Part shown: positions 1-43,159 of the stretch, piece after piece
Numbering within the stretch: position 1 is the first letter of the stretch
Layout: every line of letters starts with the position of its first letter
Assembly (NCBI GenBank): GCA_017937845.1
Contig: JAGBCV010000006.1
Span: forward strand, 1 to 64,000
Direction: 5' to 3'
DNA length: 64,000 bases
Source of the DNA: Clostridia bacterium
GTDB taxonomy: Bacteria; Bacillota; Clostridia; Oscillospirales; CAG-272
The notes under the pieces: model-generated
Databases searched by the model: none
What the model was told of the DNA's origin: nothing
The model's input: only the letters and a program-made list of their open reading frames with translations
Made by a program: the position numbers and the translations under genes

Positions 1-1
1 C

Positions 2-180
2 AACCGCTTCATTCCGCTTTGCGCGGTCCTGCTCGGCGCTCTCATCGGCGTCGCGGCGTTTTATGTTTATCCGTCTATCATCCCGGCGGATAACGTCATC
101 GTGGCATTGCTCATCGGCGCGGCTTCCGGCTGGGCTGCGACGGGTGCGTATGAGACGGGGAAGGGGCTGGGAAAGGAATG
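2..180 (+). CDS. 3' end of a membrane protein gene (start is outside the window)
   Basis: Open frame from the window edge to TGA at 178-180. Hydrophobic C-terminus ...IIPADNVIVALLIGAASGWAATGAYETGKGLGKE. Followed by an intrinsic terminator. Confidence 0.3.
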
Positions 181-188
181 AATAATAT

Positions 189-232
189 AAAACAGTTTCT
201 TGTTTTTATACAGGAAACTGTTTCTTTTTTTC
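189..232 (+). terminator. Rho-independent terminator
   Basis: Inverted repeat aaacagtttcttg/caggaaactgttt followed by a T-run. Confidence 0.6.
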
Positions 233-420
233 GAAATTTAACATTTTTTAGTCAAAAAACGCTGAAAATTGCATAAAATTTAACAAAATCTTTGAATAAT
301 CTGCAATGAAATTCTTGAAAAATAGGAAAAAACATGATAAAATGAAAACGGAGGAAAGCATCTAATAATATCCGTATCATTTTATTTGTCCTCAAATTTA
401 GATGAAACGGAGGGAAGGAG

Positions 421-1023
421 ATGTATTGGAAAATGAAAGAATTTGATATAGCATATGAAAAAGCGGAATTGGTTCTGAAAGAAATGAATTATAAAAAAGA
501 TAGAATGATTCCGACAGCAACTATTATTGACACCGTAGAAAAAATGTTGAAAGTGGATGTTAGGTTTGCGCTTTATGATTTTACCAAACTAAGTTCTGCG
601 ATGCCGGGTAAAAAAATCAACCTTGATGATTATGGCGCAGCAATGGCTGTTGATAACAACAGGGTGAATATCTTACTTAATGAAAATGAAACTCCGGAAA
701 TGCAACGATTTTCTTTAGTTCATGAGTTAGGACATTTAATGACACAAAAAGAGGTTGTTACTCAACCATATCGTGTAAGTACTCATATTGATATGGATAT
801 TACATCGATTCCGAAAGAAATTTTGGAAAATCCGAAGTATAAATTTCTTGTCAATGAGCAGGTTGCGAATATTTTTGCATTGTTGGTTTTAATGCCATAC
901 GAAATGCTTGTTGATGCAATGAAAAAACAGGATTCTTTTGAAGATGTTGCTAAATTCTTTGGAGTCAATGAATGTGCTCTTGACTCAAGGCTTCAGTTGA
1001 AAGATGCTGAAAAGGTGAACTAA
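421..1023 (+). CDS. ImmA/IrrE-family (DUF955) zinc metallopeptidase
   Basis: HEXXH motif in LVHELGHLM typical of ImmA/IrrE peptidases. Strong RBS ggagggaaggag before the ATG. Low-GC region. Confidence 0.65.
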   Translation: MYWKMKEFDIAYEKAELVLKEMNYKKDRMIPTATIIDTVEKMLKVDVRFALYDFTKLSSAMPGKKINLDDYGAAMAVDNNRVNILLNENETPEMQRFSLVHELGHLMTQKEVVTQPYRVSTHIDMDITSIPKEILENPKYKFLVNEQVANIFALLVLMPYEMLVDAMKKQDSFEDVAKFFGVNECALDSRLQLKDAEKVN

Positions 1024-1623
1024 ATGCAGAACCAATCGAAGAAAAAGGATGCATCCAACTTCGCATGTATAGATCAAGAGCAGAAGAGTTCACCAACTGT
1101 TTCTGATGTTCGAGAACATGAAACGGCTTCTGATATTTTTGATAAAGCATTAGAAGTTCAAGAGATTTCATTAGGTGATCCACAATATATTCTTTGGAAA
1201 GATAATGATCGGTTCAATACGATTGATGAACAGATACCAGGTTTAACAGAAAGATCGGAAGAAGCGTATATACAAATTGCCAATGATATTTTGGAAGCAT
1301 CAACCAGTCAGTTAAAAAAACAGAATGATTCGAAAAACGAACTGAAGGAAAGCTTGGTATGGTTTTTTAAGCGATTTATTTTGCTTCAGTATTGGCTTTT
1401 GATTGTACTAATGTTGGTTAGAATTGTTATACCTACTTATTTGTCCGATAATGTGCTTATTACATATATAACATCAGTCTTTGCTGAAACTTTGGGTGCT
1501 ATTATATTGATGGTAAAATATGCGTTTAATTCCGATCAAGAAGTTCAAATATTGCGCAAATTGAATGATGTTATTGCCAACTTTCAAAAGTTTGGAAACG
1601 ATAAGAAGAAAGATAAAAAATAA
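1024..1623 (+). CDS. Hypothetical protein with two C-terminal transmembrane helices
   Basis: Start overlaps the stop of the ImmA-like gene (taaATG). Hydrophobic segments WFFKRFILLQYWLLIVLMLV and ITSVFAETLGAIILMV. Low GC. Confidence 0.5.
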   Translation: MQNQSKKKDASNFACIDQEQKSSPTVSDVREHETASDIFDKALEVQEISLGDPQYILWKDNDRFNTIDEQIPGLTERSEEAYIQIANDILEASTSQLKKQNDSKNELKESLVWFFKRFILLQYWLLIVLMLVRIVIPTYLSDNVLITYITSVFAETLGAIILMVKYAFNSDQEVQILRKLNDVIANFQKFGNDKKKDKK

Positions 1624-1625
1624 AA

Positions 1626-1667
1626 ATATCGAACGAGTTTACTCGTTCGATATTTTTATTTTTTATC
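1626..1667 (+). terminator. Rho-independent terminator
   Basis: Perfect inverted repeat atatcgaacgag-ttta-ctcgttcgatat followed by a T-run. Confidence 0.7.
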
Positions 1668-1672
1668 TTTAA

Positions 1673-1801
1673 AATCATCATAAAAAACAGCTTGGCGGTC
1701 CGGATGGCGAGCTTGCCGCCGCGACCCGCTATCTCCACCAACGATACGCCATGCCCTATGGCGAGATCGTCGGGATCCTGACCGATGTCGGTACAGAAGC
1801 A
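1673..1801 (+). pseudogene. cotJC: Internal fragment of a CotJC-like Mn catalase gene (corresponds to CotJC residues ~27-68)
   Basis: In-frame translation NHHKKQLGGPDGELAAATRYLHQRYAMPYGEIVGILTDVGTE aligns with CotJC YGGADGELAAALRYLNQRYTIPDKVIGLLTDIGTEE. No start codon. The frame is broken immediately after GGTACAGAAG. Confidence 0.6.
1790..1799. repeat. Left copy of the 10-bp direct repeat GGTACAGAAG (putative attL core)
   Basis: An identical 10-mer is at 10448-10457, in the same codon phase of the split catalase gene. Confidence 0.6.
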
Positions 1802-1897
1802 AACTATCGATCCCAAAAAAAGAAAAGCACAGATACACGAGGAATCCTCTGATTTGAAAATTCCTCTATATCTATGCTGTCCGTCTTTTGAGCCAAA

Positions 1898-2269
1898 TTA
1901 TTCGCAGTTTCTTTCTACGAGGTCAACGAAGAATCTCTGCTTTTCTTTTTCGGTCAAGCGTTCATAACCGAATACCAAGATCTTGGTCTGAATTTCATTG
2001 AATGTTTTTTTACCGAGATTGCGGATGTGGATCAGCGTTTCGTTGGAGAGCGCTTCCACAACGTCGCCGATGGTAAAATAGCCCGCTCTTTTCAGCGCAT
2101 TGGTCGCACGAACGGAAAATTCGATGTCGTCGATGTTCGTGTCGCAAGCCTTTTTGGTAAACGCGACAGAAACACGAACCTTCTGACCGATTACCTCGTA
2201 AATGGTGTCAAGAAATCCGTTTTCCTTTGCAGAATTATAAAGTTCAAGCGCAATTTCTTCTTTTCTCAT
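1898..2269 (-). CDS. Stand-alone RNA polymerase alpha-subunit C-terminal-domain-like protein
   Basis: IEFSVRATNALKRAGYFTIGDVVEALSNETLIHIRNLGKKTFNEIQ matches the RpoA alpha-CTD helix-hairpin-helix ([20 protein letters not shown]...VRNLGRKSLEEV). Confidence 0.55.
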   Translation of the reverse strand: MRKEEIALELYNSAKENGFLDTIYEVIGQKVRVSVAFTKKACDTNIDDIEFSVRATNALKRAGYFTIGDVVEALSNETLIHIRNLGKKTFNEIQTKILVFGYERLTEKEKQRFFVDLVERNCE

Positions 2270-2409
2270 ATCGTATCCCTTTCATTTTTACGGAACACAT
2301 TTTCCCGTTTTTATTCTTTCATAAGAATATTTTAGCACATTTTTTGCGTTCTGTCAACAGGCAAAATTTTTAGTAAGGCAAGAATATGCATATATTTTTG
2401 ATTTTTTTG

Positions 2410-2991
2410 TCAATTTCTGCTGGTTTCCTTCAGATACGATGCTTCCAGATCCGCCATATGGAGCATCACCGCAAGAGGCGTACTTTCGTAAGCGCGGCTG
2501 AGTCCGAAATCACCACCCTTGACCGCGGCGTCAAAGGAGCCCATATGATAGCGGATCGCCAAAAGCTCGGGGACCTCAAGTCTGCCGAAGAACCACTGCA
2601 AGATGATACAGCTCTTTTCGCCGTGACCGATGGGGAATTTTTCGTTGATCTCATAGACCTCCTTTTTCACCCATTGACCGCTCGCCTCATCCTTGACGTT
2701 GCGATATCCCTTTTGGTAAAAATTCACCTTGCAAACGTCATGGAAAAGCGCGCAGATGGCGATGCTTTCGTCCGTCACAGGATATTCGGGATAATTTTTC
2801 GCAACGCGCTTCATGCAATCGTAGACGTTCAGCGAATGTTCAAGAAGCCCGCCGGGATAATTTCCGTGAAATTTCGTGCTGGCAGGCGCTTCAAAAAAGT
2901 CGCTCTTTTCAAGCCAATCGAGGACCTTGTCAAGTCCCTCGCGCTTGATATTCGTGTGGCATATTTCGAGAAATCGTTCTTTGTTTGTCAT
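2410..2991 (-). CDS. HD-domain phosphohydrolase family protein
   Basis: H...HD signature (ALFHDVCK) with later His/Asp residues. 193 aa. Confidence 0.65.
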   Translation of the reverse strand: MTNKERFLEICHTNIKREGLDKVLDWLEKSDFFEAPASTKFHGNYPGGLLEHSLNVYDCMKRVAKNYPEYPVTDESIAICALFHDVCKVNFYQKGYRNVKDEASGQWVKKEVYEINEKFPIGHGEKSCIILQWFFGRLEVPELLAIRYHMGSFDAAVKGGDFGLSRAYESTPLAVMLHMADLEASYLKETSRN

Positions 2992-2992
2992 A

Positions 2993-3556
2993 TCACGCCT
3001 CCTTATCCATCGTTACGGTGAGCTGTACGTTTCCGTCAAAATCCTTCCAAAGAAAAACGCCGTCCTCAAGCGTCATATAACCGTGATGGGTGTCATTCTT
3101 GGGAATCGAAACCGAACCGGGGTTCATATAAACGTAATCTTCATGCGATCTGCAATCCGCGATATGGGTATGTCCATGGAGCAAGACCGTCCCTTTTTTC
3201 ATTTTGGGCAGATTATTTTCATTGTATATATGTCCGTGTGTCGCAAAGATCGTGATCTTTCCCTCGTTTATCATCGCGTAATCCGCCATGATGGGAAAAT
3301 CAAGCACCATTTGGTCGACCTCCGCATCGCAATTTCCGCGGACGCAAAGGATATCGTCCTTTTTCGCGTTGAGCAGATCGATCACCGCCTTCGGTGCGTA
3401 TCCGCTCGGAAGGTCGTTGCGCGGCCCGTGATACAAAATATCACCGAGAAGCAAAAGCCTATCCGCGTTTTCTTTTTCGTAGGCATGGAGAAGCTCACGG
3501 CAGAACGTTTCCGAGCCGTGAATATCCGATGCAATCATCCATTTCATTCCAATCAT
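2993..3556 (-). CDS. yfcE: YfcE/MJ0936-family metallophosphoesterase
   Basis: Metallophosphoesterase motifs IASDIHG, GDILYHG, GNCD, THGH, GHTH. 187 aa. Confidence 0.75.
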   Translation of the reverse strand: MIGMKWMIASDIHGSETFCRELLHAYEKENADRLLLLGDILYHGPRNDLPSGYAPKAVIDLLNAKKDDILCVRGNCDAEVDQMVLDFPIMADYAMINEGKITIFATHGHIYNENNLPKMKKGTVLLHGHTHIADCRSHEDYVYMNPGSVSIPKNDTHHGYMTLEDGVFLWKDFDGNVQLTVTMDKEA

Positions 3557-3724
3557 CCTTTCTGATTTATATGATTTATGAGAATATTATAACAAACTTC
3601 TTTCTTTTTGTCAAATTATATCATTTATTATCTTGACAAATTCTTAATTTTTATATAAAATAAATATATGTTTAATCAAACTTTAACAAGATGTTGTAAA
3701 TACAAGAAAGAATGGAATACGGAC

Positions 3725-4570
3725 ATGAATCAAATTCGCATCTTTGCTGATAGCACCTGCGACCTTACCGCAGAGCTTATCAAAAAGTATCAGATCAATA
3801 TCATCCCTCTCAGCATCGTTCTGGACGATAAAAGTTATTTTGACGGCACCGAGGTCACACCCGACGAGATCTATAAATGGGCAGACGCCAATAAGACCAC
3901 GCCGAAGACCGCGGCGGCATCCTATGAGCAGATTTTCGACGCGATGAAAAGCGCCATGGATGCGGGAGAGGATATCATCTTCTTCGGCATTTCGGGCGAT
4001 ATGAGCAGCACCTGCAACGTCGCGCGCTTTGTCGGACGCGAAAACTACGAGCGTCTTTTCGTCATCGACTCCCGCAACCTTTCGACAGGTATCGGACTTC
4101 AGGTCATCAAGGCAGCGGAAATGGCGGCGGCAGGCAAGACCGCAGAAGAGATCGTCGCATATATCAATCAGAAAAAGGGTGACGTTCGCGCAAGCTTCGT
4201 CATCGATACCCTTACATACCTTGCACGCGGCGGACGTTGCACACCCGTCACCGCGCTGATGGCAAATACCTTGAAGCTCCACCCCATGATCGTCGTCAAG
4301 GACGGCAAAATGGGTGTCAGCAAGAAATTCCTCGGCAAGATGGATTTTGCCCTTGCCAAATACGTTGGCGAACTGACAAAGGACCTTTTGCAGGCGGATA
4401 AATCCCGCGTATTCATCACCCATTCCGGTTGCTCTGAGGCAACCATCGCAAAGGTGCGCTCCATGCTCGAAGACCTCGACTATTTCGACGAGATCCTCGT
4501 AACACGCGCAGGCGGCGTTATCTCCAGCCATTGCGGTCCCAATACTCTCGGCGTTCTTTTCTATATGTAA
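3725..4570 (+). CDS. DegV-family fatty-acid-binding protein
   Basis: IRIFADSTCDL N-terminus and overall DegV architecture. Start taken at the internal ATG (MNQIRIF). Confidence 0.8.
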   Translation: MNQIRIFADSTCDLTAELIKKYQINIIPLSIVLDDKSYFDGTEVTPDEIYKWADANKTTPKTAAASYEQIFDAMKSAMDAGEDIIFFGISGDMSSTCNVARFVGRENYERLFVIDSRNLSTGIGLQVIKAAEMAAAGKTAEEIVAYINQKKGDVRASFVIDTLTYLARGGRCTPVTALMANTLKLHPMIVVKDGKMGVSKKFLGKMDFALAKYVGELTKDLLQADKSRVFITHSGCSEATIAKVRSMLEDLDYFDEILVTRAGGVISSHCGPNTLGVLFYM

Positions 4571-4626
4571 GGATCACCCATTCAATTTGCATTCTTTTTT
4601 CATTTTTAATCTCCTATTAAACCTCC

Positions 4627-4662
4627 GGAAAAGCCCCGCGGATAACGCGGGGCTTTTCCTTT
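4627..4662 (+). terminator. Rho-independent terminator after degV
   Basis: aaagccccgcg-gataa-cgcggggcttt followed by a T-run. Confidence 0.7.
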
Positions 4663-4712
4663 TGCCAGGATCACCATGCAAGCGAAAATTGACAGAAATC
4701 ACAAATTTCCCC

Positions 4713-4741
4713 TTGTATGGAAACGATTTTTATGGTATACT
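4713..4741 (+). promoter_or_regulatory. Sigma-A-like promoter (TTGTAT-17-TGgTATACT) upstream of the mannosidase gene
   Basis: -35 ttgtat at 4713-4718, 17-bp spacer, extended -10 tggtatact at 4733-4741. Confidence 0.45.
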
Positions 4742-4778
4742 GAACACATCAATATTTTATCAATGCAGGAGGAATCCC

Positions 4779-7700
4779 ATGAACGCACAATATCGCAAAG
4801 TCAAAAAATATCATGACATCATCAAAAAGCATCGATATTGCAATCAGACTGCTGTCGGCAATATAACAGTATGCCCTTGCGGTTATAAAGAAGGTCACAC
4901 CCCGCCTCCGCTTTCTGATTTTCAGCCCTATACGGTCGGTACCGATTGGGGTAGCGGATTTGATAGCCACGTTTGGTTCCATTTTGAGTTCAAAATTCCC
5001 GAAAACATGAAAAATAAACCCGTGGAACTGAAGGTCGCTTGCGATAAAGAAGGCGGCGTCGGCTCCAATCCGCAGTTTATTTTGTATATCAACGGCAAGA
5101 TCCGCCAAGGTCTTGATATCCGTCATACATCCGTACCGCTCTATGATATGGACGAAACCTATGACGTATACGTTTACGCTTACACCGGCGCGAGGATCCG
5201 CACAGCAAAGCTGTTCGTTGAACTTTATAACGTCAACACCGTCTGCAACGAGTTTTTCTGGGATATCGACGTACCGTTCGACACGCTTGAATTTACCGAC
5301 GAATATTCCATCGAATACGCCGATATTTTGAAATATCTCGATCATGCAGTTTCCATGCTCGACCTTTATGATCTCGGCTCTGACGAATTTTTCGCTTCCA
5401 TAGAAAAAGCGAAAGCATATTTCGACGCAGAATTTTACGGCAAGTACTGTGGAAACGCTAAAACACAGGTCACCGCCATCGGTCATACGCATATCGACTG
5501 CGCTTGGCTTTGGACACTCAAACAGACAAGAGAAAAGGTACAGCGTTCCTTTGCGACCGTGCTTGAGCTGATGAAGCGCTATCCCGAATACAAATTCATG
5601 TCCTCTCAAGCGTTCCTTTATAAAAACATGAAAGAGGAAGCCCCCGAGCTTTACGAGGAGATCAAGGAACGCATCAAAGAGGGACGCTGGGAATGTGAGG
5701 GTGCAATGTGGGTCGAAGCCGATTGCAACCTTTCCTCCGGCGAAAGCCTTGTCCGTCAGGTCATGTACGGCAAACGCTTCTTCAAGGATGAATTTGGTGT
5801 CGATAATCGCGTATTGTGGCTTCCCGACGTATTCGGCTATGCCGCAGCGCTCCCGCAGATCCTCAAAAAGAGCGGTGTCGATTGGTTCGTGACCTCCAAG
5901 ATCAGCTGGAACGACACCAATATGATGCCCTACGATACCTTTGAATGGTACGGCATCGACGGCACCCCCGTCCACACTTACTTCCTCACCGCATCGGATT
6001 ATCAACTCGGCAAAACACCTCCTCGCGGCACAACCTATAACGCGCAGATCACACCCAAAATGGTCGCAGGCACCATCAAGCGCTATCAGAATAAGGACCT
6101 CAGCAACGACGCGCTCATCACCTATGGTTACGGTGACGGCGGTGGCGGCCCGACCGTAGAAAATCTTGAAACCGCACGCCGTACCGCAAAGGGTATCCCC
6201 GGTGTTCCGCAGACCAAGCTGGAATTTGCAGGTGACTTCCTCACCCGTTTGGAAAAGAAGATGGCAGAAGCGAAGCGCGTTCCTGCATGGCATGGCGAGC
6301 TTTATCTCGAATATCACAGAGGTACCTACACCTCCATTTCCAAGAACAAACGCAACAACCGCAAGAGCGAATTTCTCTACATGAACACCGAAACCATCGG
6401 CAGTATGGCAAAAGCGCTCATCGGTATGCCCTTCCCAAAGGAAAAGCTCCACGAGGGCTGGGAATCGCTTCTCACGAACCAGTTCCACGATATCATTCCC
6501 GGCTCGTCCATTCGTGAGGTATACGAGCAGAGCGATATCGACTACGCAAATCTCATGCAGATCGCAAGCACCGAGCTTTCGACCGCAACGGAAGCGATCG
6601 CAAAGGGCATTTCCGCAGGCAGAGGACATGTCATTTTCAACCCGAACCCGTTCGTCGGCAACGGCATCGTGAAGATCGACGGCAAGAGCGCGTACGTCGT
6701 GGGAATCCCCGCCAAGGGCTACGCCGCGGCAGGACATCTCAAGCTCTATAATCGCATCATCATTCAGAATCAGACCGTGGAAACCGACAAGCTCCGCGTT
6801 CGTTTTGATGAAAACTGGCTCATCGAATCCGTTTACGATAAGATCAATGACCGTGAAGTCATTCGCGAGGGCGAAAAAGCCAATGAGATTCGCGTATACG
6901 CTGACCATCCCGACACCTACGACGCATGGGAATGGCAGGAATACTCCCTTGAGGATTACAAGGTCATCACGGACGTCACGAGTGTTGATATCATCGATGA
7001 CGGCGCAAGACGCGGTATCCGCATCACCCGTCCGTTCATGAAATCCACGATCACACAGACCGTTTGGTTCTATGACGATATCGCCAAGATCGACTTTGAA
7101 ACGGTTGCCGATTGGCACAATCAGCACCAGATGGTCAAGGCGGCATTCCCCGTCGATATCAACTCGATGAAAGCGACCTACGATATCCAGTACGGTACGA
7201 TCGAACGCCCGACCCATAAGAACACCAGCTGGGATAACGCAAAATTTGAGGTCTGCGCGCATAAATACGCCGATCTTTCCGAAGGCGGCTATGGCGTTGC
7301 CATTCTGAGCGATTGCAAATACGGCTACGATATCCATGACGGTCTGATGCAGATTTCCCTTTTCAAGACCCCGACCTCCCCGAACGAAGTTGCCGACCAG
7401 GGCGAGATCGTATTCACGTATTCGCTCTGTCCGCACGCAGGCACGCTCGCAGATTCGAATATCCCCGCGCTGGCATATGACCTCAATAACCCCATGTTTG
7501 CCATCAAGGCGACGGGCGTGAACAGTATTCTTCCCGAAGAATTTTCCATGGTGACATCGAGCGCAGAAAACCTCCTCTGCGAAGTCATCAAGGAAGCGGA
7601 AGATTCCGACGCAACGATCCTCCGATTCTATGAATCCAAGAATATGAAGACCACCGCCGAGATCACCCTCGGTATGCAGGCTGAGCATTGCTACCTCTGC

Positions 7701-7799
7701 GACCTCATGGAAAATGAGCTCGAAGAGCTTCCCATCGTCAAAGGCAAGGTAACCGTCAACGCTCATGGCTTTGAAATTTTGACCCTCAAGGTAAAATAA
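4779..7799 (+). CDS. GH38 alpha-mannosidase (cytoplasmic)
   Basis: GH38 N-terminal signature IGHTHIDCAWLW and DxFGY motifs. RBS aggagg 8 nt before ATG 4779. ~1006 aa. Confidence 0.85.
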   Translation: MNAQYRKVKKYHDIIKKHRYCNQTAVGNITVCPCGYKEGHTPPPLSDFQPYTVGTDWGSGFDSHVWFHFEFKIPENMKNKPVELKVACDKEGGVGSNPQFILYINGKIRQGLDIRHTSVPLYDMDETYDVYVYAYTGARIRTAKLFVELYNVNTVCNEFFWDIDVPFDTLEFTDEYSIEYADILKYLDHAVSMLDLYDLGSDEFFASIEKAKAYFDAEFYGKYCGNAKTQVTAIGHTHIDCAWLWTLKQTREKVQRSFATVLELMKRYPEYKFMSSQAFLYKNMKEEAPELYEEIKERIKEGRWECEGAMWVEADCNLSSGESLVRQVMYGKRFFKDEFGVDNRVLWLPDVFGYAAALPQILKKSGVDWFVTSKISWNDTNMMPYDTFEWYGIDGTPVHTYFLTASDYQLGKTPPRGTTYNAQITPKMVAGTIKRYQNKDLSNDALITYGYGDGGGGPTVENLETARRTAKGIPGVPQTKLEFAGDFLTRLEKKMAEAKRVPAWHGELYLEYHRGTYTSISKNKRNNRKSEFLYMNTETIGSMAKALIGMPFPKEKLHEGWESLLTNQFHDIIPGSSIREVYEQSDIDYANLMQIASTELSTATEAIAKGISAGRGHVIFNPNPFVGNGIVKIDGKSAYVVGIPAKGYAAAGHLKLYNRIIIQNQTVETDKLRVRFDENWLIESVYDKINDREVIREGEKANEIRVYADHPDTYDAWEWQEYSLEDYKVITDVTSVDIIDDGARRGIRITRPFMKSTITQTVWFYDDIAKIDFETVADWHNQHQMVKAAFPVDINSMKATYDIQYGTIERPTHKNTSWDNAKFEVCAHKYADLSEGGYGVAILSDCKYGYDIHDGLMQISLFKTPTSPNEVADQGEIVFTYSLCPHAGTLADSNIPALAYDLNNPMFAIKATGVNSILPEEFSMVTSSAENLLCEVIKEAEDSDATILRFYESKNMKTTAEITLGMQAEHCYLCDLMENELEELPIVKGKVTVNAHGFEILTLKVK

Positions 7800-7807
7800 A
7801 ACAGTAC

Positions 7808-7838
7808 AAAAAATGCACCTGCTCGCAGGTGCATTTTT
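7808..7838. terminator. Bidirectional intrinsic terminator between convergent genes
   Basis: aaaaaatgcacctgc-tcg-caggtgcatttttt. Confidence 0.65.
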
Positions 7839-7846
7839 TCATATAC

Positions 7847-8701
7847 TTACATTTTCACGCCGCCGACAAACACATCTGCGTTGCAATCAAAGACCGCATC
7901 TTCACGAATGACCTCGCCCGTGCTGTCAACGGAGATCTTACCCGAGCGCGGATTTTTGATGGAATCCACGTGTCCGATGACGCTTGCTTCCACGTCGGAA
8001 TATTCAAAGGAAAGATCACAACCCTCCATCGTGCAATCGATCAGACGGAGATTTTTGCAATAGCAAAGGGGCTGTGTACCGATGATCTTACAACGAATGA
8101 GCGTCAGATTCTCCGAAAACCAACCGAGATATTCCCCTTTCACGGTGCTATCCGTAACGGTCACGTTTTTCGCGTGCCAAAAAGCGTCCTTGGTGTCAAA
8201 GTTACTGTTTCGGATGGTGAGGTTTTCCATGTACTGAAAGGAGTATTTTCCTTTCATGGAAAGACCGTCGATCTCTACGTTTTTGCTGTCAAGGAAGATA
8301 TATTCCGAGGTGATTTGCGAGTTTTTGATGTTCACACCGTCGCATTTCCAGCCAAATTCAAGAGAGGTGATATCGGAATCCTTGACCGTCATATTCTGAC
8401 ATTCGCGGAGAATTTTAATGCTGTTAACGTGGCAATTTTTAAGCGTACCGTTTTCGTCATACCACATCGCGGCTCTCGCCTTTTCATCAAATTTCGAGTT
8501 CTCGATGAGAAAATTTCTGACGTGCCAAAGCGGATAACGAAGCGAGAACGAGCAGTTTTTGACCTCGATCCCGTTACATTCCTTCAAAACCGATTCTCCG
8601 TCGGCAGGACCTGCAAACGTGCAATCGACGACCTCCGTATCGACCAAATGATAAAGCGAGCGCTCTTCGTCAAACGTTTTATGTATGATTTGATTTTTCA
8701 T
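7847..8701 (-). CDS. Right-handed beta-helix repeat protein (DUF3737-like)
   Basis: Repeated ~22-aa units (NC.F..., N.T..DS.I) typical of parallel beta-helix proteins. 284 aa. Confidence 0.5.
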   Translation of the reverse strand: MKNQIIHKTFDEERSLYHLVDTEVVDCTFAGPADGESVLKECNGIEVKNCSFSLRYPLWHVRNFLIENSKFDEKARAAMWYDENGTLKNCHVNSIKILRECQNMTVKDSDITSLEFGWKCDGVNIKNSQITSEYIFLDSKNVEIDGLSMKGKYSFQYMENLTIRNSNFDTKDAFWHAKNVTVTDSTVKGEYLGWFSENLTLIRCKIIGTQPLCYCKNLRLIDCTMEGCDLSFEYSDVEASVIGHVDSIKNPRSGKISVDSTGEVIREDAVFDCNADVFVGGVKM

Positions 8702-8764
8702 ATATTTACAACGATTCCTTTGCTTAACTTTTTCCTATTAGTCTATCACAAAAATAGGTCAGTG

Positions 8765-10231
8765 TCAATTCTCACACCCAAAAAGCAATGAATCATTTCC
8801 TTTTTTCTCTTGAATCTCATTCCATTTCACTTGATATTCTCGTCCGTTTCGCAAAATAACAAACGAAAATATCTTTTCGGTGTTTTTCAACCGTACCTCT
8901 GCCCGATCTTCATATACCGTCATATCATCTAAAATCTCCCGAAAAAAGCCTTCTTCGGAAATCGAAAGCTGCAATACCTTCTCCATTTCCGAAAGCCGTT
9001 CTTCCCTTTTATAAAAATGCGCCCTTTCCGAAAGATATTCCTCTCTTGAAATATCCCCCAAAAGATAAAGCTCCCGTAATTTTTTCGTGCATAACTCGTT
9101 TCGTTTCGTAAGCTTTGCCCAAAGGAGCGCCATGACCGCTTGCTTTGCCATATCAATTTCATTTTGAACATTCGCAAGCGTAAGCGAAAGCATCTCTGAA
9201 ACGATATCGTTTTTGATCGAAACAGATGCGTGCTTCCCTTGGCATCGCCAAAGATGATAAATGCCGTTTTTTCGTTTTTGCACCCTTGCCGTCAGAATTT
9301 TCCCGCAAATGCCGCATCGAAGCTTTCCCGAAAAGGGATAGACCGTGCTGTGTTTTTCGCGTACGTTCTTCGTTTTTCGTTCCGATAAAAGCGCCTGCGC
9401 CCGTTCAAAGATTTCCCCGGAAACAATGGGCGTGTGGTGATTTTGAATCACGATCAATTCTTCCTCGCCGTGGTTGTATTTCTTCTCATGCGAAAGATAA
9501 TCCGGCGTGATCGTCTTTTTTTGCACGAGATCACCGCAATATTTCTCATTTTTCAGTATCCGCAAAATGACGGAGGGACTCCATGTTTTTGCGCTTTTGG
9601 GGGATATTCCCACGTCGGAAAGATATCTTGCGATCTCGGAAATGCTTCGCTTTTCTTCACAAAACAGCCGAAAAATGTACCGTACTGTTTCCGCGCCGTT
9701 CTCATTTACGGTCATTTCCCCGTTTTTCACGTCATATCCAAGCAAGCTATGCCCAAAGACCACACCGTTTTCCATGCGCCGTTTCTGTCCCCATTTCACA
9801 CGCTCGGAGGTTCTTCTGCTCTCCTCTTGCGCGATGGAGGAAAGAATCGCCAACCGAAGCTCCGCATCGGCTTCTCTCGTATCAATGCCATCATTCAGAA
9901 AACATACGCCAACACCAAGATGTTTCAGCTCTCTCGTATAAGAAATGCTATCCAAAATATTCCGCGCAAATCGTGAAATTTCTTTTGTCAGAATCAGTTC
10001 AAATTTACCGTCGCGGGCATCTCGCATCATGCGCTTGAAGGCTTCCCTTTTTTTCACGTTCGTTCCCGTCGTTCCCTCGTCGGCGTAAATTTCATATAAA
10101 TTCCATTCGGGATTTTTTTCGATATATTCCCCGAAAAAACGCTTTTGACTTTCAAAGGAGCTTGCCTGTTCTCCCCTGTCTGTGGAAACACGGCAATAGG
10201 CGGCGACGTACTTTTTTTCATTCGATATCAT
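8765..10231 (-). CDS. Large serine recombinase (resolvase domain + recombinase domain + zinc ribbon)
   Basis: N-terminal YCRVSTDRGEQ...SFESQ catalytic Ser motif. 488 aa with a central recombinase domain and CGICG...C zinc ribbon. Sized like SpoIVCA/TnpX-type recombinases. Confidence 0.85.
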   Translation of the reverse strand: MISNEKKYVAAYCRVSTDRGEQASSFESQKRFFGEYIEKNPEWNLYEIYADEGTTGTNVKKREAFKRMMRDARDGKFELILTKEISRFARNILDSISYTRELKHLGVGVCFLNDGIDTREADAELRLAILSSIAQEESRRTSERVKWGQKRRMENGVVFGHSLLGYDVKNGEMTVNENGAETVRYIFRLFCEEKRSISEIARYLSDVGISPKSAKTWSPSVILRILKNEKYCGDLVQKKTITPDYLSHEKKYNHGEEELIVIQNHHTPIVSGEIFERAQALLSERKTKNVREKHSTVYPFSGKLRCGICGKILTARVQKRKNGIYHLWRCQGKHASVSIKNDIVSEMLSLTLANVQNEIDMAKQAVMALLWAKLTKRNELCTKKLRELYLLGDISREEYLSERAHFYKREERLSEMEKVLQLSISEEGFFREILDDMTVYEDRAEVRLKNTEKIFSFVILRNGREYQVKWNEIQEKKGNDSLLFGCEN

Positions 10232-10426
10232 CGGTTTGCGTCCTCATTTTTTCGCGCAAAGGTGCCGTAAAGTGCAAAAATTCCTCCTCCGAGAGCAGTT
10301 TTTTCTCCCATAACACCGCAAAAAATGCATACTGAATCCGCCAAAAAAGCAATCTTTCCATGACTTCACCTCCAAAAAAATACTACCTCATTTTATGAAG
10401 GCTTTCGGTTTTTCAGTCCAAAAAAC

Positions 10427-10858
10427 GCCATATTGTTTGCGCTTGTAGGTACAGAAGAACTCGCCCATCTCGAAATGATTGCAGCGATCCTGTATCAGCT
10501 CACGCGCAATCTCACCCCCGAGGAAATCAAAAAAACGGGCTTTGACACCTATTTTGTCGACCATACCGCGGGAATTTATCCTCAATCCGCAGGCGGAACA
10601 CCGTTTACTGCCGCTTATATCGGCATCAAGGGCGACGTTTTCGCCGATTTGAACGAGGATCTGGCGGCAGAACAGAAGGCGCGTGTAACGTATGATAACA
10701 TTCTTCGTCTCGTAGATGACCCCGACGTCCGTGACCCCATCAAATTCCTCCGCCAAAGAGAGATCACTCATTATCAGCGGTTCGGTGATGCACTTCGTAT
10801 CGCGCAGGATCATGCAGACTGCAAGAATTTTTATGCATATAACCCTGCATTTGACTGA
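10427..10858 (+). pseudogene. cotJC: C-terminal segment of the split CotJC-like Mn catalase gene
   Basis: LVGTEELAHLEMIAAILYQLTRNLTPEEIKKTGF...FTAAYIGIKGDVFADLNEDLAAEQKARVTYDNILRLVDDPDVRDPIKFLRQREITHYQRF aligns along its length with CotJC (IGTEEFAHLEMIATMVYKLT...FLREREIVHSMRF). Upstream in-frame sequence is unrelated, with a stop at 10361. Confidence 0.75.
10448..10457. repeat. Right copy of the 10-bp direct repeat GGTACAGAAG (putative attR core)
   Basis: Identical to 1790-1799. Lies in frame at the GTEE codons of the catalase C-terminal segment. Confidence 0.6.
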
Positions 10859-10934
10859 GCGTAAGTAATTTTCCCAAAAATTGACGGCGATTCTCTGTGT
10901 GAGAATCGCCGTTTCTGTATGAAGAAAACTATCA

Positions 10935-11177
10935 CTATTTTCGATATTTATTATAAAAATCAATCATCAATTTTTCAATTACTTCAAAATCAAATGTTGG
11001 AACTGGACGATGATTACTTTTCGACATCCTGCCACCAAGATTATGTCCAGCGGCGGTTAATGTCCAATCATCAAAGTTATCTTTGATGACTAAGCCCATA
11101 TCCTTCCACATACCATAAACCCACTCGGTGCTCATTCCTACCGCTCTACCTACGAAACGTGCTGACATTCTACTCAT
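10935..11177 (-). CDS. Hypothetical small protein (80 aa), low GC
   Basis: Tightly packed with two upstream genes on the same strand. No recognisable domain. Confidence 0.4.
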   Translation of the reverse strand: MSRMSARFVGRAVGMSTEWVYGMWKDMGLVIKDNFDDWTLTAAGHNLGGRMSKSNHRPVPTFDFEVIEKLMIDFYNKYRK

Positions 11178-11189
11178 AAATTACTCCTT

Positions 11190-11417
11190 TCAATCATCGT
11201 TGGAAAGATACCAACCGTGTTCTCTACGAGGAAGATTCAACGGAAAACGACTGGAAATTGTATTCACAATATCAATTCTCTTAAGATCGAGTTGCAAATA
11301 GTCCTCTGAATCATAATCCATGTCATTGAGAACGGATCGCATATCCGCCTCAACAGAGCGAAGCTCTTTTTCGGTTGCACTTTGCATCCAAGAATCCGTA
11401 ATATAACTAAATTTCAT
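11190..11417 (-). CDS. Hypothetical small acidic protein (75 aa), low GC
   Basis: 3-bp gap to the upstream gene. No recognisable domain. Confidence 0.4.
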   Translation of the reverse strand: MKFSYITDSWMQSATEKELRSVEADMRSVLNDMDYDSEDYLQLDLKRIDIVNTISSRFPLNLPRREHGWYLSNDD

Positions 11418-11419
11418 GG

Positions 11420-12292
11420 TTAACCCTCCTGCATTAAGATTTGTTTTATCTTATCGGGTTCTTGAATTACAAGAAACTCCAATACAGCTTTCATAAAAAA
11501 TTCAACCGTCTTTCCCCCAAGTACTTTGTTGGTAGCAGCAGTTATATCTGAATCGTAAGAAAATATGGAAACAAATCCGCACGCAAAATCCCATGCCGTT
11601 ATAGTTTCGTCATGACTTACAATCTTACAATAACAAAAAATCTTATGTATAATGCTTTGTACTTCATCGCAAGAGGGACTCAAATGTATCATATCCTTTA
11701 ATTCTAAAATAGCAGATAAATATTCATCTTTGGTTTCTTCACTAAGTTCTGGTACAAGTTCATGAGATAACATTTCAAGTCGGTTAATTTCTGTATCCTC
11801 AATATTCTGAATATCATCAATTTGGGATATATACTCTATTGAACTCAAAACTTTTTGCAATTTTTTATCCTTGTCAAGATATTCGATAAAATCGGTCAGA
11901 TAACTATTGAAATCTGTACTTCCCATCAATACATTTGGAGGATATGGAACAAAACCGACTCCTTTAACATATTTCATAAATTCAATCAAAACTTGAAGTT
12001 CCTTGATTTGTTGTTCATATTTTTGAATTAATTCGTTAAGAGAATCTCTAACACTGATTTTTTCTCCCTGAGTCAAATCTTTTATTTGAGCATAAGAAAG
12101 ACCCATTTTTCGACACAAGTATGCATTCCAAACGATTTCCACTTCTTCTTGCGAATAAGTTCTTGGAGTATAATTTTTATTTATAATCCATTCGTTATCA
12201 TTTCTTTTAGGAGAAATCAAACCTTGTCTTTCGCATTCACGAAGAAAATTTCGGTCAATACCTGCTTTTGTTATATCTTGTGTTTTCATGAT
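11420..12292 (-). CDS. MerR-like HTH protein with a ~200-aa C-terminal domain of unknown function
   Basis: N-terminal ITKAGIDRNFLRECERQGLISP...YSQEEVEIV...GLSYAQIKDL follows the MerR HTH pattern. Start taken at MKTQDIT. Low GC. Confidence 0.5.
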   Translation of the reverse strand: MMKTQDITKAGIDRNFLRECERQGLISPKRNDNEWIINKNYTPRTYSQEEVEIVWNAYLCRKMGLSYAQIKDLTQGEKISVRDSLNELIQKYEQQIKELQVLIEFMKYVKGVGFVPYPPNVLMGSTDFNSYLTDFIEYLDKDKKLQKVLSSIEYISQIDDIQNIEDTEINRLEMLSHELVPELSEETKDEYLSAILELKDMIHLSPSCDEVQSIIHKIFCYCKIVSHDETITAWDFACGFVSIFSYDSDITAATNKVLGGKTVEFFMKAVLEFLVIQEPDKIKQILMQEG

Positions 12293-12371
12293 TTTCCCTC
12301 CTTTGTCTATATTATAATAAATGGTATTACACCGTTTCAATAGCTTTTATAAAAATCATTAAATTTTTTGT

Positions 12372-12453
12372 AATAAATATCCACCCTCATATGAAGTGAT
12401 CCAAAAAGTGTCTATCTTTTGAGGTTCATCTCTATAATGGGTGGATATTTATT
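12372..12453. repeat. Hairpin repeat of the AAATATCCACC(C)...(G)GGTGGATATTT family (15-bp perfect arms, 52-bp loop)
   Basis: aataaatatccaccc at 12372-12386 is the reverse complement of gggtggatatttatt at 12439-12453. Related copies at 18493-18523 and 20028-20066. Confidence 0.55.
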
Positions 12454-12456
12454 ATG

Positions 12457-13749
12457 TTATTGCTCCAGCATGATCTTGATGATTTCTTTATCGGTCTCGC
12501 CCATGCCCTCTCTGGCAAGACGTCCGATGTTGCGTATGGTATTTTCAACGCCTTTCGTCACGATGCCGTCGCCTGCATAGAATTGCCGTCCCGTTTTCGC
12601 CATTTCATAGCCCAAGATGCCTGCTTCGACCGCCATTGCGATCTTCGCGGCACAGGAAGGCTTCGCGCCGTCACAAATCGTACCGGACAAAATCGCTACG
12701 GCGTTTACGATCGTATGGGCAATCTGAGAATACGTACCGCCAAGCAAAAAGGCGATACCTGCACCGCAACCACAGCCCGCACTGATCGCACCGCAATATG
12801 CAGACAGACAACCGATTCCCGCCTTTTGATGCACCGTCACGAGATTCGACACGATCAAAGCACGGAGCAAGCGTTCATGGTCGATGCCATGCTCACGGGC
12901 GTAAATGATAACGGGGACAGAAGCGGTAATGCCTTGGTTGCCGCTGCCGGAAATGATGCAGACCGCCAGCTCACAGCCACTCATGCGCGCATCTGAGCCT
13001 GCGGCGGCATACGCTCTGGCGCGTCTTGCCGTATCGGCAACGCCGATCTGCAAAAGAAGCTTGCCGATCGATGCACCGTAAGAATGTTTCAAGCCCTCCT
13101 CGGCAATCGTCATATTCAGCTCGATCTGCTTTTCCAAATATGGACGAAGCTCATCAAGCGGTACTTCCTCCGCAAACGTCACGATATCCCGCACGTTGAG
13201 AAGATTTTCCCGAAGCTCCTTGGCGGATTCCGCCGTTACGTTTTCATCATGCGTTTCACAATATCGACCGAGCAAGGAAACGTCGTTTCGCGTTACGGCT
13301 ACCACGTTCGTATGGTTTTCCTTGATGCGGACCGTCGCTACGTCATCGCCGCGCTTACCCGTCAGCTTCAGATCAAAGCTGCATCGGGAGTTGAGTTCAT
13401 ATATCTCGATGTTACATTGATCTTTATACGCCGCGATCTGCTCGATATCCTGTTCCTGCAAAACGCCCAAGACCTCAAGCTTCTGCTCGTAAGCATTGGC
13501 GATCACACCGGCAGCAACCGCGCTTTCGATTCCGTGCATACCGCCCGTCGCGGGAACGACGACGCTTTTGACGTTTTTGATGATGTTACCGCTCAGACCT
13601 ACGGAAATCGCTTCCGCTCGACCGCCAAGCACGTCGGTCAAGATAGATGCCGCATATGCAATGGATATCGGCTCTGTGCAACCCATGGCGGGGCGCAATT
13701 CGTCCTTCAGTATCGCAGTATAGCTCGTAATGATGTCAGATGAAAGCAT
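12457..13749 (-). CDS. UPF0597/YhaM-family L-cysteine desulfidase-like protein
   Basis: Conserved AMGCTEPISIAYAAS motif and length. Start chosen at the internal ATG preceded by gaggaaaa RBS. Confidence 0.75.
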   Translation of the reverse strand: MLSSDIITSYTAILKDELRPAMGCTEPISIAYAASILTDVLGGRAEAISVGLSGNIIKNVKSVVVPATGGMHGIESAVAAGVIANAYEQKLEVLGVLQEQDIEQIAAYKDQCNIEIYELNSRCSFDLKLTGKRGDDVATVRIKENHTNVVAVTRNDVSLLGRYCETHDENVTAESAKELRENLLNVRDIVTFAEEVPLDELRPYLEKQIELNMTIAEEGLKHSYGASIGKLLLQIGVADTARRARAYAAAGSDARMSGCELAVCIISGSGNQGITASVPVIIYAREHGIDHERLLRALIVSNLVTVHQKAGIGCLSAYCGAISAGCGCGAGIAFLLGGTYSQIAHTIVNAVAILSGTICDGAKPSCAAKIAMAVEAGILGYEMAKTGRQFYAGDGIVTKGVENTIRNIGRLAREGMGETDKEIIKIMLEQ

Positions 13750-13904
13750 AGTCTTATTTTCCTCACTCAAAAAATCAATATTTATTGCATATAGTTTATC
13801 ATATCCAGCCGTTTTTTTCAATAGACTTTCCTAAGATTCTTATGGGAATCACATTTCAAAGCCAAATTGATTTTTCGGCTGAATGGATTTAATTGGTATT
13901 ATAC

Positions 13905-13933
13905 TTGACTTTTTCGCTTTTATATGCTATAAT
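13905..13933 (+). promoter_or_regulatory. Consensus sigma-A promoter TTGACT-17-TATAAT
   Basis: ttgact at 13905-13910, 17-bp spacer, tataat at 13928-13933 (preceded by tgc). Confidence 0.6.
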
Positions 13934-13998
13934 ATTATCAAAAATAAAGGTATGCTTTATGCGGTGATTCGATAAGGCAGCCTCAGTAGGAGTATATT

Positions 13999-14637
13999 AT
14001 GGCAATTCAACTGTTCGCACTTCCTCATAAGCACAGCAACTTTCCTCTGCGTTTGGCGAAAGGGCATTTTGCCACCAGCCACAGCCACTTGAACTATTAT
14101 ATCGACTTCACGATGTCCAAATATCGTCTTTCTGAGGCTCGTGCCGGCGCGCAGATCCTTTGCAATCAGCTTCCTCTTACACAAATCGTGGATACGATCC
14201 TTTGCTTGGACGGCACCGAGGTGATCGGCGCTTGCATGGCAAGTGAGCTGACCCGCGCCGGCTACGTAAATATGAATGCACATCGTACCATCTACGTCAT
14301 TTCGCCCGAATACACCAGCGGCAGCCAGATGATCTTCCGCGATAACATCGCGCCCATGATCGTCGGTAAGCACGTTTTGGTTTTGGCAGCTTCTCTCGCA
14401 ACCGGTTATACCGCTCGCTCCGCTATCGAAGCGATCCGTTATTATCAAGGTATTCCCGTCGGCGTTTGCTCGATCTTTGCTTGCGTGGAAGAATGTGAAG
14501 GCTTCCCCGTTCGCAGTATCTATAACAAAAACGATATTCCCGATTACGAAAGCCATTCCGCTCACGATTGCCCCTTGTGCAAGGCAGGCATCAAGATCGA
14601 CGGCTTGGTCAACAGCCACGGCATTTCCAGCTTGTAA
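13999..14637 (+). CDS. Hypothetical protein with a degenerate phosphoribosyltransferase-like fold and C-terminal CxxC
   Basis: RBS aggagt. HVLVLAASLATGYTARSAIEAI resembles a PRTase loop but lacks the acidic pair. A spurious 276-aa ORF lies on the opposite strand. Confidence 0.45.
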   Translation: MAIQLFALPHKHSNFPLRLAKGHFATSHSHLNYYIDFTMSKYRLSEARAGAQILCNQLPLTQIVDTILCLDGTEVIGACMASELTRAGYVNMNAHRTIYVISPEYTSGSQMIFRDNIAPMIVGKHVLVLAASLATGYTARSAIEAIRYYQGIPVGVCSIFACVEECEGFPVRSIYNKNDIPDYESHSAHDCPLCKAGIKIDGLVNSHGISSL

Positions 14638-14734
14638 TACATTTTTAAGCCATCCGAGAGGGTGGCTTTTTTTGTACCAAAAACCGAAAATGCGAAAAAT
14701 TCCAAGCGTATTCCCTGCTTTTTTCCGATAAAGA

Positions 14735-14763
14735 TTGATTTTTGGTGCATAATATTGTATACT
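14735..14763 (+). promoter_or_regulatory. Sigma-A-like promoter TTGATT-17-TGtTATACT
   Basis: ttgatt at 14735-14740, 17-bp spacer, extended -10 tgtatact. Confidence 0.5.
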
Positions 14764-14804
14764 GTATATAAATAGAAATTTTTCCACAAAAAGGAGGATA
14801 TCAT

Positions 14805-41573: not shown

Positions 41574-42215
41574 TCACTGTAATGTTCCCAACATTGCCGC
41601 TCCGCCCCATTCGACGACGGTAAATCCTTCGCGCTCAAACGGCTTGATTTCGGGCGCTTCGACCTCGATGGGCTTTGTAAGGGGCTGATAGACCATAAAT
41701 ACGCGAAGAAGGCTATCGGGAGTCGGGGTGATGCTCAAAACCGCGCTTTCGGTATAAAGCTCGTTTTGGAACGTGATAAGATTATAAGGGTTATTCGCCA
41801 TTCTCGGGAGCCAATAGGTGATAAAATCGTTGCGTTCACGGGGAGAAAGCCCCATTTTGGTGAGCGTTTCCTCCAAAAAATCCGCCGTTTCACTTCCCTT
41901 TACGACGTAACCGCGAGTCATATCCCACTTGATATCAGCAACGCCTTCCCAAAAGAGATAGAAATACTCCTTGCCTGTCGCGGCATCGTAAAGCGTACCG
42001 TCGGGAGATGCGATGACAGACCAGCCGTCAGCATATTCGGGATAGGTGCAGAGCAGCGTGCCGTTGTAATCAAGCTCGACCATGACGCCGGTTTCTTCCT
42101 CTGGATAGAGATAGATGACGGGTTTTTCTGCTTGAATCGGCTCCCATGGTGGATTGCAAGCAGTCATAGAAACGAGCATAACAAGCGTCAATAAGCATAC
42201 GATACATTTTTTCAT
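41574..42215 (-). CDS. Hypothetical lipoprotein
   Basis: Signal peptide and lipobox MTAC. No domain recognised. Confidence 0.5.
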   Translation of the reverse strand: MKKCIVCLLTLVMLVSMTACNPPWEPIQAEKPVIYLYPEEETGVMVELDYNGTLLCTYPEYADGWSVIASPDGTLYDAATGKEYFYLFWEGVADIKWDMTRGYVVKGSETADFLEETLTKMGLSPRERNDFITYWLPRMANNPYNLITFQNELYTESAVLSITPTPDSLLRVFMVYQPLTKPIEVEAPEIKPFEREGFTVVEWGGAAMLGTLQ

Positions 42216-42363
42216 AGAAAAATCCTCCTAAATTTTCGATTTCATTTCTTAGTCGAAGATTCAGGAGGATTTTCTCACCCAAAACCAAAAATTTATTCTT
42301 TTTTGAAAAATTTTTGCGACATCTCATAAATCGCGGTCGAGCTGGCTCAGCTCGCGGTTTTTT

Positions 42364-43105: not shown

Positions 43106-43159
43106 CTTAAAAATCTCCTTTGATATTAAAAAATATGGTTTCTATCTCAAAATCGGGCT

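Follow-up and report, generated by a model that had tools for sequence, protein, structure and literature searches.

A non-phage element with its own large serine recombinase splits the sporulation gene cotJC in a clade of gut Clostridia and is probably excised to rebuild it

The DNA analysed here, a 64,000-nt stretch of contig JAGBCV010000006.1 from Clostridia bacterium (GCA_017937845.1, CAG-272), is referred to as the window, and all positions are in its numbering. Near its left end lies cotJC, a gene for a manganese catalase, in pieces: codons 28-65 (1688-1799) and 62-197 (10448-10858) share a single CotJC-type reading frame and are separated by an element of 8,658 bp, including one copy of the 10-bp repeat GGTACAGAAG found at both break points, which carries metabolic and regulatory genes together with a gene for a large serine recombinase (LSR). 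Overlapping the start of the LSR gene is a short conserved open reading frame (ORF), a candidate for the recombination directionality factor (RDF). The relatives compared with the window (L and P numbers) are metagenome contigs or metagenome-assembled genomes (MAGs) throughout. The locus is laid out as follows.

1688-1799, plus strand: cotJC middle piece, codons 28-65 (QLGGPDGE...ILTDVGTE); tblastn 89% identity to residues 28-64 of intact CotJC
1790-1799, plus strand: element core, left copy (attL), GGTACAGAAG, one of only two copies in the window; predicted crossover dinucleotide GG at 1790-1791
1800-10447, no strand: element body, with the gene set also seen in L032, L034, L038-L042 and L047
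1898-2269, minus strand: stand-alone RpoA alpha C-terminal domain (CTD) protein, 123 aa (PF03118, E 3e-17)
2410-2991, minus strand: HD-domain phosphohydrolase (PF01966)
2993-3547, minus strand: YfcE-type phosphodiesterase, Metallophos_2 (NF006988, 226 bits against a cut-off of 117)
3725-4570, plus strand: DegV family protein (PF02645, E 1e-64; TIGR00762)
4779-7799, plus strand: GH38 alpha-mannosidase (Glyco_hydro_38N, mid and C domains)
7847-8701, minus strand: DUF3737 beta-helix protein (PF12541, E 1e-112)
8765-10231, minus strand: LSR, 488 aa, catalytic motif YCRVS16T (Resolvase, Recombinase and Zn_ribbon_recom domains)
10218-10361, minus strand: conserved 47-aa ORF, candidate RDF; overlaps the LSR start by 14 nt
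10390-10397, minus strand: CATAAAAT box, candidate -10 of a mother-cell sigma factor, about 30 nt upstream of the ATG of the 47-aa ORF
10448-10457, plus strand: element core, right copy (attR), GGTACAGAAG
10448-10858, plus strand: cotJC 3' piece, codons 62-197 and stop (TGA 10856-10858); tblastn 79% identity to residues 46-197 of intact CotJC, E 2e-79
Junction strings: element attB (rejoined), GATGTCGGTACAGAAGAACTCGCC; element attP, GCGCTTGTAGGTACAGAAGCAAACTATCG

Within the 64 kb the 10-mer occurs exactly twice, at 1790 and 10448, a spacing of 8,658 bp. Joining 1688-1799 to 10458-10858, that is, deleting 8,648 bp and one repeat, gives an exact in-frame junction which reads ...ILTDVGTEELAHLEM... 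and whose product contains ...GILTDVGTEELAHLEMIAA...; this agrees with an earlier note on this DNA, which had reported the identical 10-mer at both break points and predicted that such a deletion would restore the gene. The note had also described the two pieces as colinear CotJC segments in one frame, the left one beginning at 1673. Frame and colinearity hold, but the left start does not: CotJC homology begins at 1688 (codon 28), an in-frame TAA lies at 1670-1672, and 1671-1687 is a phage arm that mimics host sequence, so that 1673 is rejected as a start. Many 197-aa homologues, 85-91% identical, align colinearly with 100% of the rejoined product, which matches Pfam Mn_catalase (PF05067) with E 2e-43; in the same species (L038-L045) the gene stands in a cotJA-cotJB-cotJC context. 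Judged by its sequence the rejoined gene is a CotJC-type manganese catalase, with a predicted activity. The 3' piece is 98.5% identical to its counterpart in L032. ORFs of 141 aa on the plus strand of L011 and L013-L016, considered as an alternative junction, proved to be the same arrangement with a different gene call.

The ends of the element resemble those of LSR substrates. Arms ATTGTTTGC (10432-10440) and GCAAACTAT (1799-1807) are both found around the core, as expected from the imperfect inverted repeat that the earlier note had proposed for attP. The reconstructed attP is an imperfect dyad. In the window and in L034 it is centred on the core's first GG, a position that ties with another centre in L032; attP is thus a dyad centred on a crossover dinucleotide shared with attB, the cleavage position itself being predicted. 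The attL copy of L034 and L047 reads GGGAGAGAAG, as would be expected if crossover takes place at that GG and the element arm supplies what follows.

The recombinase gene starts at 10231, 216 bp from the core, and runs to 8765 as a complete ORF of the length and position given in the earlier note. Pfam recognises PF00239 (E 1.3e-30), PF07508 (1.6e-25) and PF13408 (2e-7), and R14 and S16 are invariant in 18 homologues. An AlphaFold2 (AF2) model (pLDDT 74) shows strands at 304-330, a zinc ribbon and then a helical, coiled-coil hairpin at 356-424, so that the protein combines the catalytic Arg-x-Ser domain with a Recombinase domain and a zinc ribbon with embedded coiled-coil. A Foldseek comparison matches the whole length of the model to SPbeta SprA (E 2.6e-21), Bxb1 and the Listeria (LI) integrase; the closest sequence match of the catalytic domain is the conjugative-transposon recombinase 3g13. 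No NCBIfam name is assigned above cut-off: XisF is the best model (120 against a cut-off of 375) and the Ccr models also fall far below. The earlier note had named an inactive or pseudogenised recombinase as fatal to its proposal; the intact ORF, the full LSR architecture and a ratio of nonsynonymous to synonymous substitution (dN/dS) of 0.15-0.24 point the other way, and the LSR looks functional.

Profile scans of the element proteins with Pfam, NCBIfam and PHROGs recovered the whole cargo that the earlier note had called by eye (RNA_pol_A_CTD, HD, Metallophos_2/YfcE, DegV, GH38, DUF3737) and found no phage structural or conjugation genes in the element body. Relaxase, type IV secretion system (T4SS) and coupling-protein domains are likewise absent from all eight ORFs of the element, which does not belong with integrative conjugative or mobilisable elements. 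The cargo genes carry consensus sigma-70 promoters. The RpoA-CTD protein is 100% identical in amino acid sequence in L032 at a dS of 0.46 (dN/dS 0.008) and 97% identical in L034 and L047, which suggests a constraint unusually strong for an island gene; the HD phosphohydrolase also has a dN/dS of 0.008 against L032. Such strong constraint, together with the sigma-70 promoters, indicates that the cargo consists of working vegetative genes.

Upstream of the LSR gene, the 47-aa ORF is conserved in five lineages at 45-81% identity, with dN/dS of 0.15-0.56; a GGAGGTG ribosome-binding site precedes its ATG, and it matches phrog_2996 weakly. The RDF of the gin element of Bacillus cereus is a 42-aa protein without motif, which makes the 47-aa ORF an obvious RDF candidate. 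No sigma-70-type promoter is found between this ORF and the att core. What stands there is a CATAnnnT-type box, kept in four of five lineages despite diverged surroundings (CATATAGA in L037) and resembling CATAGCATGA upstream of cotJA in L038; it could fit a mother-cell sigma factor.

The same element lies at the same cotJC codons in L032, L033, L034, L037 and L047, besides L038-L042 of the same species. When homologues of the LSR were looked up, four at 59-75% identity and one member of a 559-aa family at 61%, all five were found to adjoin a cotJC broken at codons 61-65; a sixth LSR, in L047, was reached from the cotJB side and, at 55% identity, sits in the same element. Probing from the cotJB side gave two further contigs, both with cotJC split, one of which (L046) is from the same assembly as L033. 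Gene order in L032, L034 and L047 is identical (RpoA-CTD, HD, YfcE, DegV, GH38, DUF3737, LSR), as it is for the part covered by the contig in L033. L037 (GCA_965347685.1) keeps only Vut_1, the 47-aa ORF, the LSR and DUF3737 beside the 3' piece. For more than 9 kb the usual cargo is replaced in this contig by housekeeping-looking genes (RlmL, GalT, MntP, a his operon), with no cotJC 5' piece in range: either the element is very large there or a rearrangement has separated the two halves.

Compared with their L032 counterparts, the element genes of the window have a dS of 0.46-0.92; the figure is 0.56-0.93 in the flanking host genes and 0.69 in cotJC. Lineages ranked by LSR, cargo and CotJB identity fall in broadly the same order. 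Overlapping dS and matching ranks indicate that the element diverged with the genomes and did not move between them. By these sequence comparisons it is an old element, vertically inherited in at least six lineages and fixed in cotJC of a clade of ruminant-gut Clostridia.

The gene it interrupts has not decayed. Three split cotJC alleles give dN/dS of 0.022, 0.036 and 0.038 at dS of 0.7-1.7, and two uninterrupted alleles 0.018; rejoining in silico the two pieces of L032, or the three of L034, yields a perfect ORF of 197 codons. These values suggest strong purifying selection on split cotJC, and since the break predates the lineage splits, the gene must be regularly reassembled to keep such a pattern. 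Uninterrupted 197-aa alleles, which the earlier note had proposed to look for in relatives, do exist in a sister clade (P0002, P0003, P0008), with cotJA-cotJB-cotJC operons in L017-L021.

To the left of the element, the earlier note overlooked a second insertion, a prophage that truncates the left cotJC fragment. Its features in the window are these.

1-1687, plus strand: AT-rich prophage right end, GC 29-37% (400-nt windows within 201-1800), host genes being at about 50%
421-1023, plus strand: ImmA/M78 peptidase of the prophage (Pfam Peptidase_M78)
1024-1623, plus strand: 199-aa prophage ORF
1618-1661: strong terminator hairpin in the prophage end
1671-1687: phage-derived att arm, AAAATCATCATAAAAAA
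1688-1698, plus strand: prophage att core, CAGCTTGGCGG, 11 bp, attR copy; predicted crossover at the final GG, cotJC codon 31
Junction string: prophage attP, ATCATAAAAAACAGCTTGGCGGAACAAATTG

Codons 1-27 of cotJC, cotJA and cotJB are absent from the window and from contigs that reach 9.6 kb further left (L002, L005); genes for a BppU_N tail protein, a holin-like protein and an SNF2 helicase mark these leftward contigs as phage DNA. Both prophage states of the species were recovered by probing with CotJB of the closest relative. In L038-L042, which are 98-98.8% identical to window 1671-10914, the order is cotJA-cotJB-cotJC(1-64)/element/cotJC(65-197) with no prophage, and such prophage-free strains align with the window only from 1671 on. 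In L043-L045, one of which (L043) is from the same sample as a window-type contig, cotJA-cotJB-cotJC(1-31) is followed by a 490-aa serine integrase, a CI-like repressor, YqaJ, RecT and ParB, the prophage left end. The core CAGCTTGGCGG is common to attB (L038), attL (L043-L045) and attR (window); the prophage attP has an inverted repeat, ATCATCATAAA...TTTATGATGAT, whose axis of symmetry is the core's last GG, and deletion of the prophage in silico restores the host sequence exactly. Tail and holin-like proteins, ImmA, LSR, repressor and att sites mark this DNA as a prophage of which capsid and terminase were unseen, its middle being unrecovered. From these comparisons we take window 1-1687 to be the right-hand end of an LSR-carrying prophage, and the insertion appears to be recent and polymorphic. 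On the same evidence, cotJC of the window strain is in three pieces, parted by the prophage at codon 31 and the 8.66 kb element at codons 62-65. Excising the latter alone leaves the gene unrestored: with the left fragment itself truncated by the prophage, a full cotJC needs two independent excisions.

We think it fairly probable that the 8,658-bp segment is an old, vertically inherited, non-phage intervening element whose LSR, by excising it, rebuilds cotJC, most likely in the sporulating mother cell. It interrupts the frame of a sporulation gene, has its own recombinase near one end, restores the ORF exactly on removal, and the gene is kept under selection. The earlier note had read the locus as a skin-like intervening element, and the orthologous element at the same codons, its co-divergence with the flanks and the dN/dS of 0.02-0.04 on cotJC support that reading. 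The host has an endospore programme, as the note had also said, given that SigE, SpoIIGA and SpoIIIAA, AE, AF and AG are encoded in the window (protein profile matches):

41574-47261 and 57770-59545, minus strand: spoIIIA operon (AA, AE, AF and AG recognised) and spoIIGA-sigE

In B. subtilis cotJ is expressed in the mother cell. In the mechanism we envisage, the LSR, probably helped by the 47-aa protein as directionality factor, would recombine attL with attR, crossing over at the central GG (1790-1791 and 10448-10449), so that the element would leave as a circle and codons 62-65 would be rejoined exactly (DVGTEE). This would most likely happen in sporulating cells, on the mother-cell side: the mother cell differentiates terminally and expresses cotJ, and the element would stay in the chromosome of the forespore. 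The recently acquired prophage of the window strain, which lies at codon 31 (core CAGCTTGGCGG) and encodes a separate 490-aa serine integrase, would have to excise independently.

Several points weigh against this account. Excision junctions were sought as exact strings: attP and rejoined attB have 0 matches in JGI metagenome contigs, and attP 0 in IMG/VR, but both collections may lack the species, which was seen only in ENA/Logan assemblies. Metagenomes that contain it are SRR12529167, SRR12529195, SRR12529201, SRR12529203, SRR25030126 and the runs behind ERZ28654387, ERZ28654569, ERZ28654753 and ERZ28018701. The 47-aa ORF is as yet a candidate directionality factor, and it is from a short motif that the promoter has been assigned. 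Of the element's proteins, those of the cargo are 95-100% identical with L032 and the LSR 75%, the recombinase being the faster to evolve. CotJC-type catalases can be redundant, as reported for C. difficile. The prophage, moreover, cuts the bulk of the gene off from codons 1-31 and from the cotJ promoter, and cotJC would be inactivated in this strain if the prophage did not excise in the mother cell.

The element might instead be excisable without being developmentally programmed: stochastic or stress-induced excision and re-integration in vegetative cells would make it an on/off switch or an ordinary mobile element, with selection acting on cotJC in cells that had lost it. Integration and excision are what LSR elements generally do, cotJC is a target of many different elements, the catalytic domain is closest to that of a conjugative-transposon recombinase (3g13), and timing is indicated by none of the computed results. 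Yet no intact allele above 91% identity appeared for this species among the best 120 matches listed from a 5.8-billion-protein database, element and flanks co-diverge, the profile scans gave the element no transfer or replication genes, the LSR operon has no sigma-70 promoter before it, and, if the LSR is co-transcribed with an RDF-like ORF, excision alone would be favoured. To this possibility we give an appreciable but minor weight. That the insertions have permanently inactivated a dispensable cotJC, leaving pseudogene remnants, is less probable still, and the two breaks must be judged separately. For the prophage it is possible, since that insertion is recent and polymorphic, leaving no time for decay at its break, and there can be redundancy among CotJC paralogues. 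For the 8.66 kb element it is unlikely: the break at codons 62-65 predates splits with dS from 0.7 to more than 1.5, yet there are no stops or frameshifts, dN/dS is 0.02-0.04, and the LSR has been maintained. Most improbable, to the point that we would be surprised by it, is a split protein formed with no DNA rearrangement, the pieces being translated separately and assembling into an active catalase. Gene callers do call ORFs in the 3' piece, of 127 aa from ATG 10475 and of 141 aa from TTG 10433, but neither start is preceded by a Shine-Dalgarno sequence or promoter, genomes with the gene in three or four pieces have them tens of kb from one another, and the break cuts through the GTEE-x-x-H motif, which we take to carry the dimanganese ligands.

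In architecture and in the mechanism proposed for it, the excisable cotJC element would be of a kind with skin in sigK and SPbeta in spsM, and its closest counterpart appears to be the non-phage gin element, which splits gerE in Bacillus cereus ATCC10987 and is excised by the LSR GirC with the 42-aa motif-less GirX, a proven RDF. Both gin and the window element are non-prophage elements splitting a small mother-cell sporulation gene; the core, 9-10 bp within an imperfect inverted repeat in gin, is 10 bp here, and where an LSR and a tiny motif-less RDF carry out excision of gin, the window element has an LSR and the conserved 47-aa ORF. They differ in target (gerE as against cotJC), in size and number of recombinases (28.6 kb with three, 8.7 kb with one) and in cargo, restriction-modification (R-M) and recJ genes in gin and metabolic or regulatory genes here; the overlap of the candidate RDF with the LSR start and the conservation of the element with co-divergence across several lineages are peculiar to the window element, for which excision is a prediction.

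The skin element (sigK, SpoIVCA; B. subtilis and C. difficile) is similarly domesticated, unable to form phage and kept in the germ line, and its removal by an LSR rebuilds a mother-cell gene, as removal of the window element should; skin, however, is the remnant of a prophage, 48 kb long, and interrupts a gene for a sigma factor, whereas the window element has no phage genes and lies in a coat catalase gene. SPbeta (spsM, SprA/SprB) is, like the prophage at codon 31, a prophage with a terminal LSR that splits a sporulation gene, and the modelled 488-aa LSR aligns over its full length with SprA structures; excision in sporulation is proven for SPbeta, while the codon-31 prophage is known from its sequence, and their structural genes are unrelated. 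The heterocyst elements of Anabaena (nifD/XisA, fdxN/XisF, hupL/XisC) belong to another phylum and developmental programme, but they too are removed in a terminally differentiated cell, with several elements per operon or gene, and XisF is the best NCBIfam match of the window LSR, albeit far below cut-off.

The earlier note knew of no cotJC-splitting element as a standard annotation. This holds in part: the preprint of Kohm et al., citing Abe et al. (2013), includes cotJC in a passing list of frequent phage or transposon integration targets, so that the phenomenon itself is not new, but no description of this element was found. Mageeney et al. (2020) do not mention cotJ, and the literature consulted, Abe et al. 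(2013) apart, holds no description of the element's clade-wide conservation with its cargo, of the evidence for selection or of a cotJC in two to four pieces. With this comparative and selection evidence cotJC joins the short list of sporulation genes apparently rebuilt by DNA excision, and the phenomenon extends from Bacillus and Clostridium models to uncultured and newly named gut Clostridia of Oscillospiraceae-like type. It also appears that a coding frame can go on harbouring a non-phage element, conserved metabolic cargo included, while lineages split.

The prophage and the 8.66 kb element are not the only insertions in cotJC. Other contigs carry insertions at these positions.

Codon ~31: related or unrelated prophages (L025, L027, L029, L030, L046)
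Codons ~62-70: a phage adjoining the element's own site (L031)
Codon ~140: a second LSR element with metabolic cargo (L033)
Codon ~172: a second LSR element with metabolic cargo (L034)

One small gene can thus host several independent recombinase elements. In L034 (GCA_965356275.1) the element at codon ~172 occupies 3414-8530, has the core GGCGA and a 513-aa LSR preceded by a 43-aa ORF, and carries helix-turn-helix (HTH)-phosphoglucomutase, hexapeptide-transferase and glucosamine-6-P isomerase genes. The element at codon ~140 in L033 is the third LSR element of GCA_054288285.1 and carries MFS, MatE, GH39, alanine dehydrogenase (AlaDH) and GH2 genes; in this assembly (L033 and L046) cotJC appears to be in at least four pieces, if the MAG is a single genome, with the last piece not recovered. 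The 559-aa LSR family, for which the search gave about a hundred clusters, most from Logan and ENA assemblies, adjoins cotJC codon 62, and its LSR gene extends over the junction. A named genome, Oscillospiraceae bacterium CLA-AA-H250 (GCA_020687165.1), also has a member of the family. There (L035, 10001-11829) the LSR ORF ends at 11680 and the cotJC 5' fragment on the opposite strand reaches 11644, an overlap that carries the last ~12 codons of the LSR over the att junction and into host-derived DNA; the C-terminus of this LSR could change with the state of integration. CLA-AA-H250, with its related LSR at the same site, would make the excision prediction testable if cultured.

Tentatively, and with less confidence than for excision of the 8.66 kb element itself, cotJC may be pictured as a docking gene with at least four LSR positions, occurring in two, three or at least four pieces, in which two or three orthogonal recombinases would fire in one mother cell; the innermost element would be a clade-wide domesticated island of highly constrained vegetative genes, discarded from the mother-cell chromosome at each sporulation. 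The natural and apparently orthogonal LSR/att pairs at GGTACAGAAG, at CAGCTTGGCGG and at the GGCGA-containing site, and the 47-aa RDF candidate, are of possible use for genome engineering.

Some observations lie to one side of these questions. P0001 (NCBI, a 1.3 kb contig) is a 267-aa CotJC homologue with an internal diverged duplication of ~70 residues, the second copy of which begins MLTDIGTEE, the motif occupied by the element att site; it could be an assembly chimera or a recombination footprint. A search of viral contigs with the prophage tail protein gave weak, unrelated matches only, and a scan of genome contigs recovered related prophages, two of them adjoining cotJC. The window prophage has very large ORFs of 1,135, 1,250 and 1,738 aa with almost no Pfam matches (L002, L005, L043-L045), and its relative in L027 a single ORF of 4,707 aa (1880-16003) that contains an SNF2-type helicase domain. 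A defence system was not called in these large proteins, PADLOC giving mainly weak DrmD, BrxH and DpdE matches from one Helicase_C stretch.

An AT-rich island of 1.5 kb (~30% GC, 10915-12452) lies between the cotJC stop and an SDH_alpha gene. It has three minus-strand ORFs, of 306 aa (weakly MerR-like), 75 aa and 80 aa, no recombinase gene, and flanking 12-bp direct repeats, GATATTTATTAT, at 10943 and 12444; having repeats of its own, it was rejected as part of one element embracing the AT-rich DNA on both sides of the locus. The island is absent from the prophage-free L038-L041, where the empty site reads GATATTTAT, and it co-occurs with the prophage in the contigs seen.

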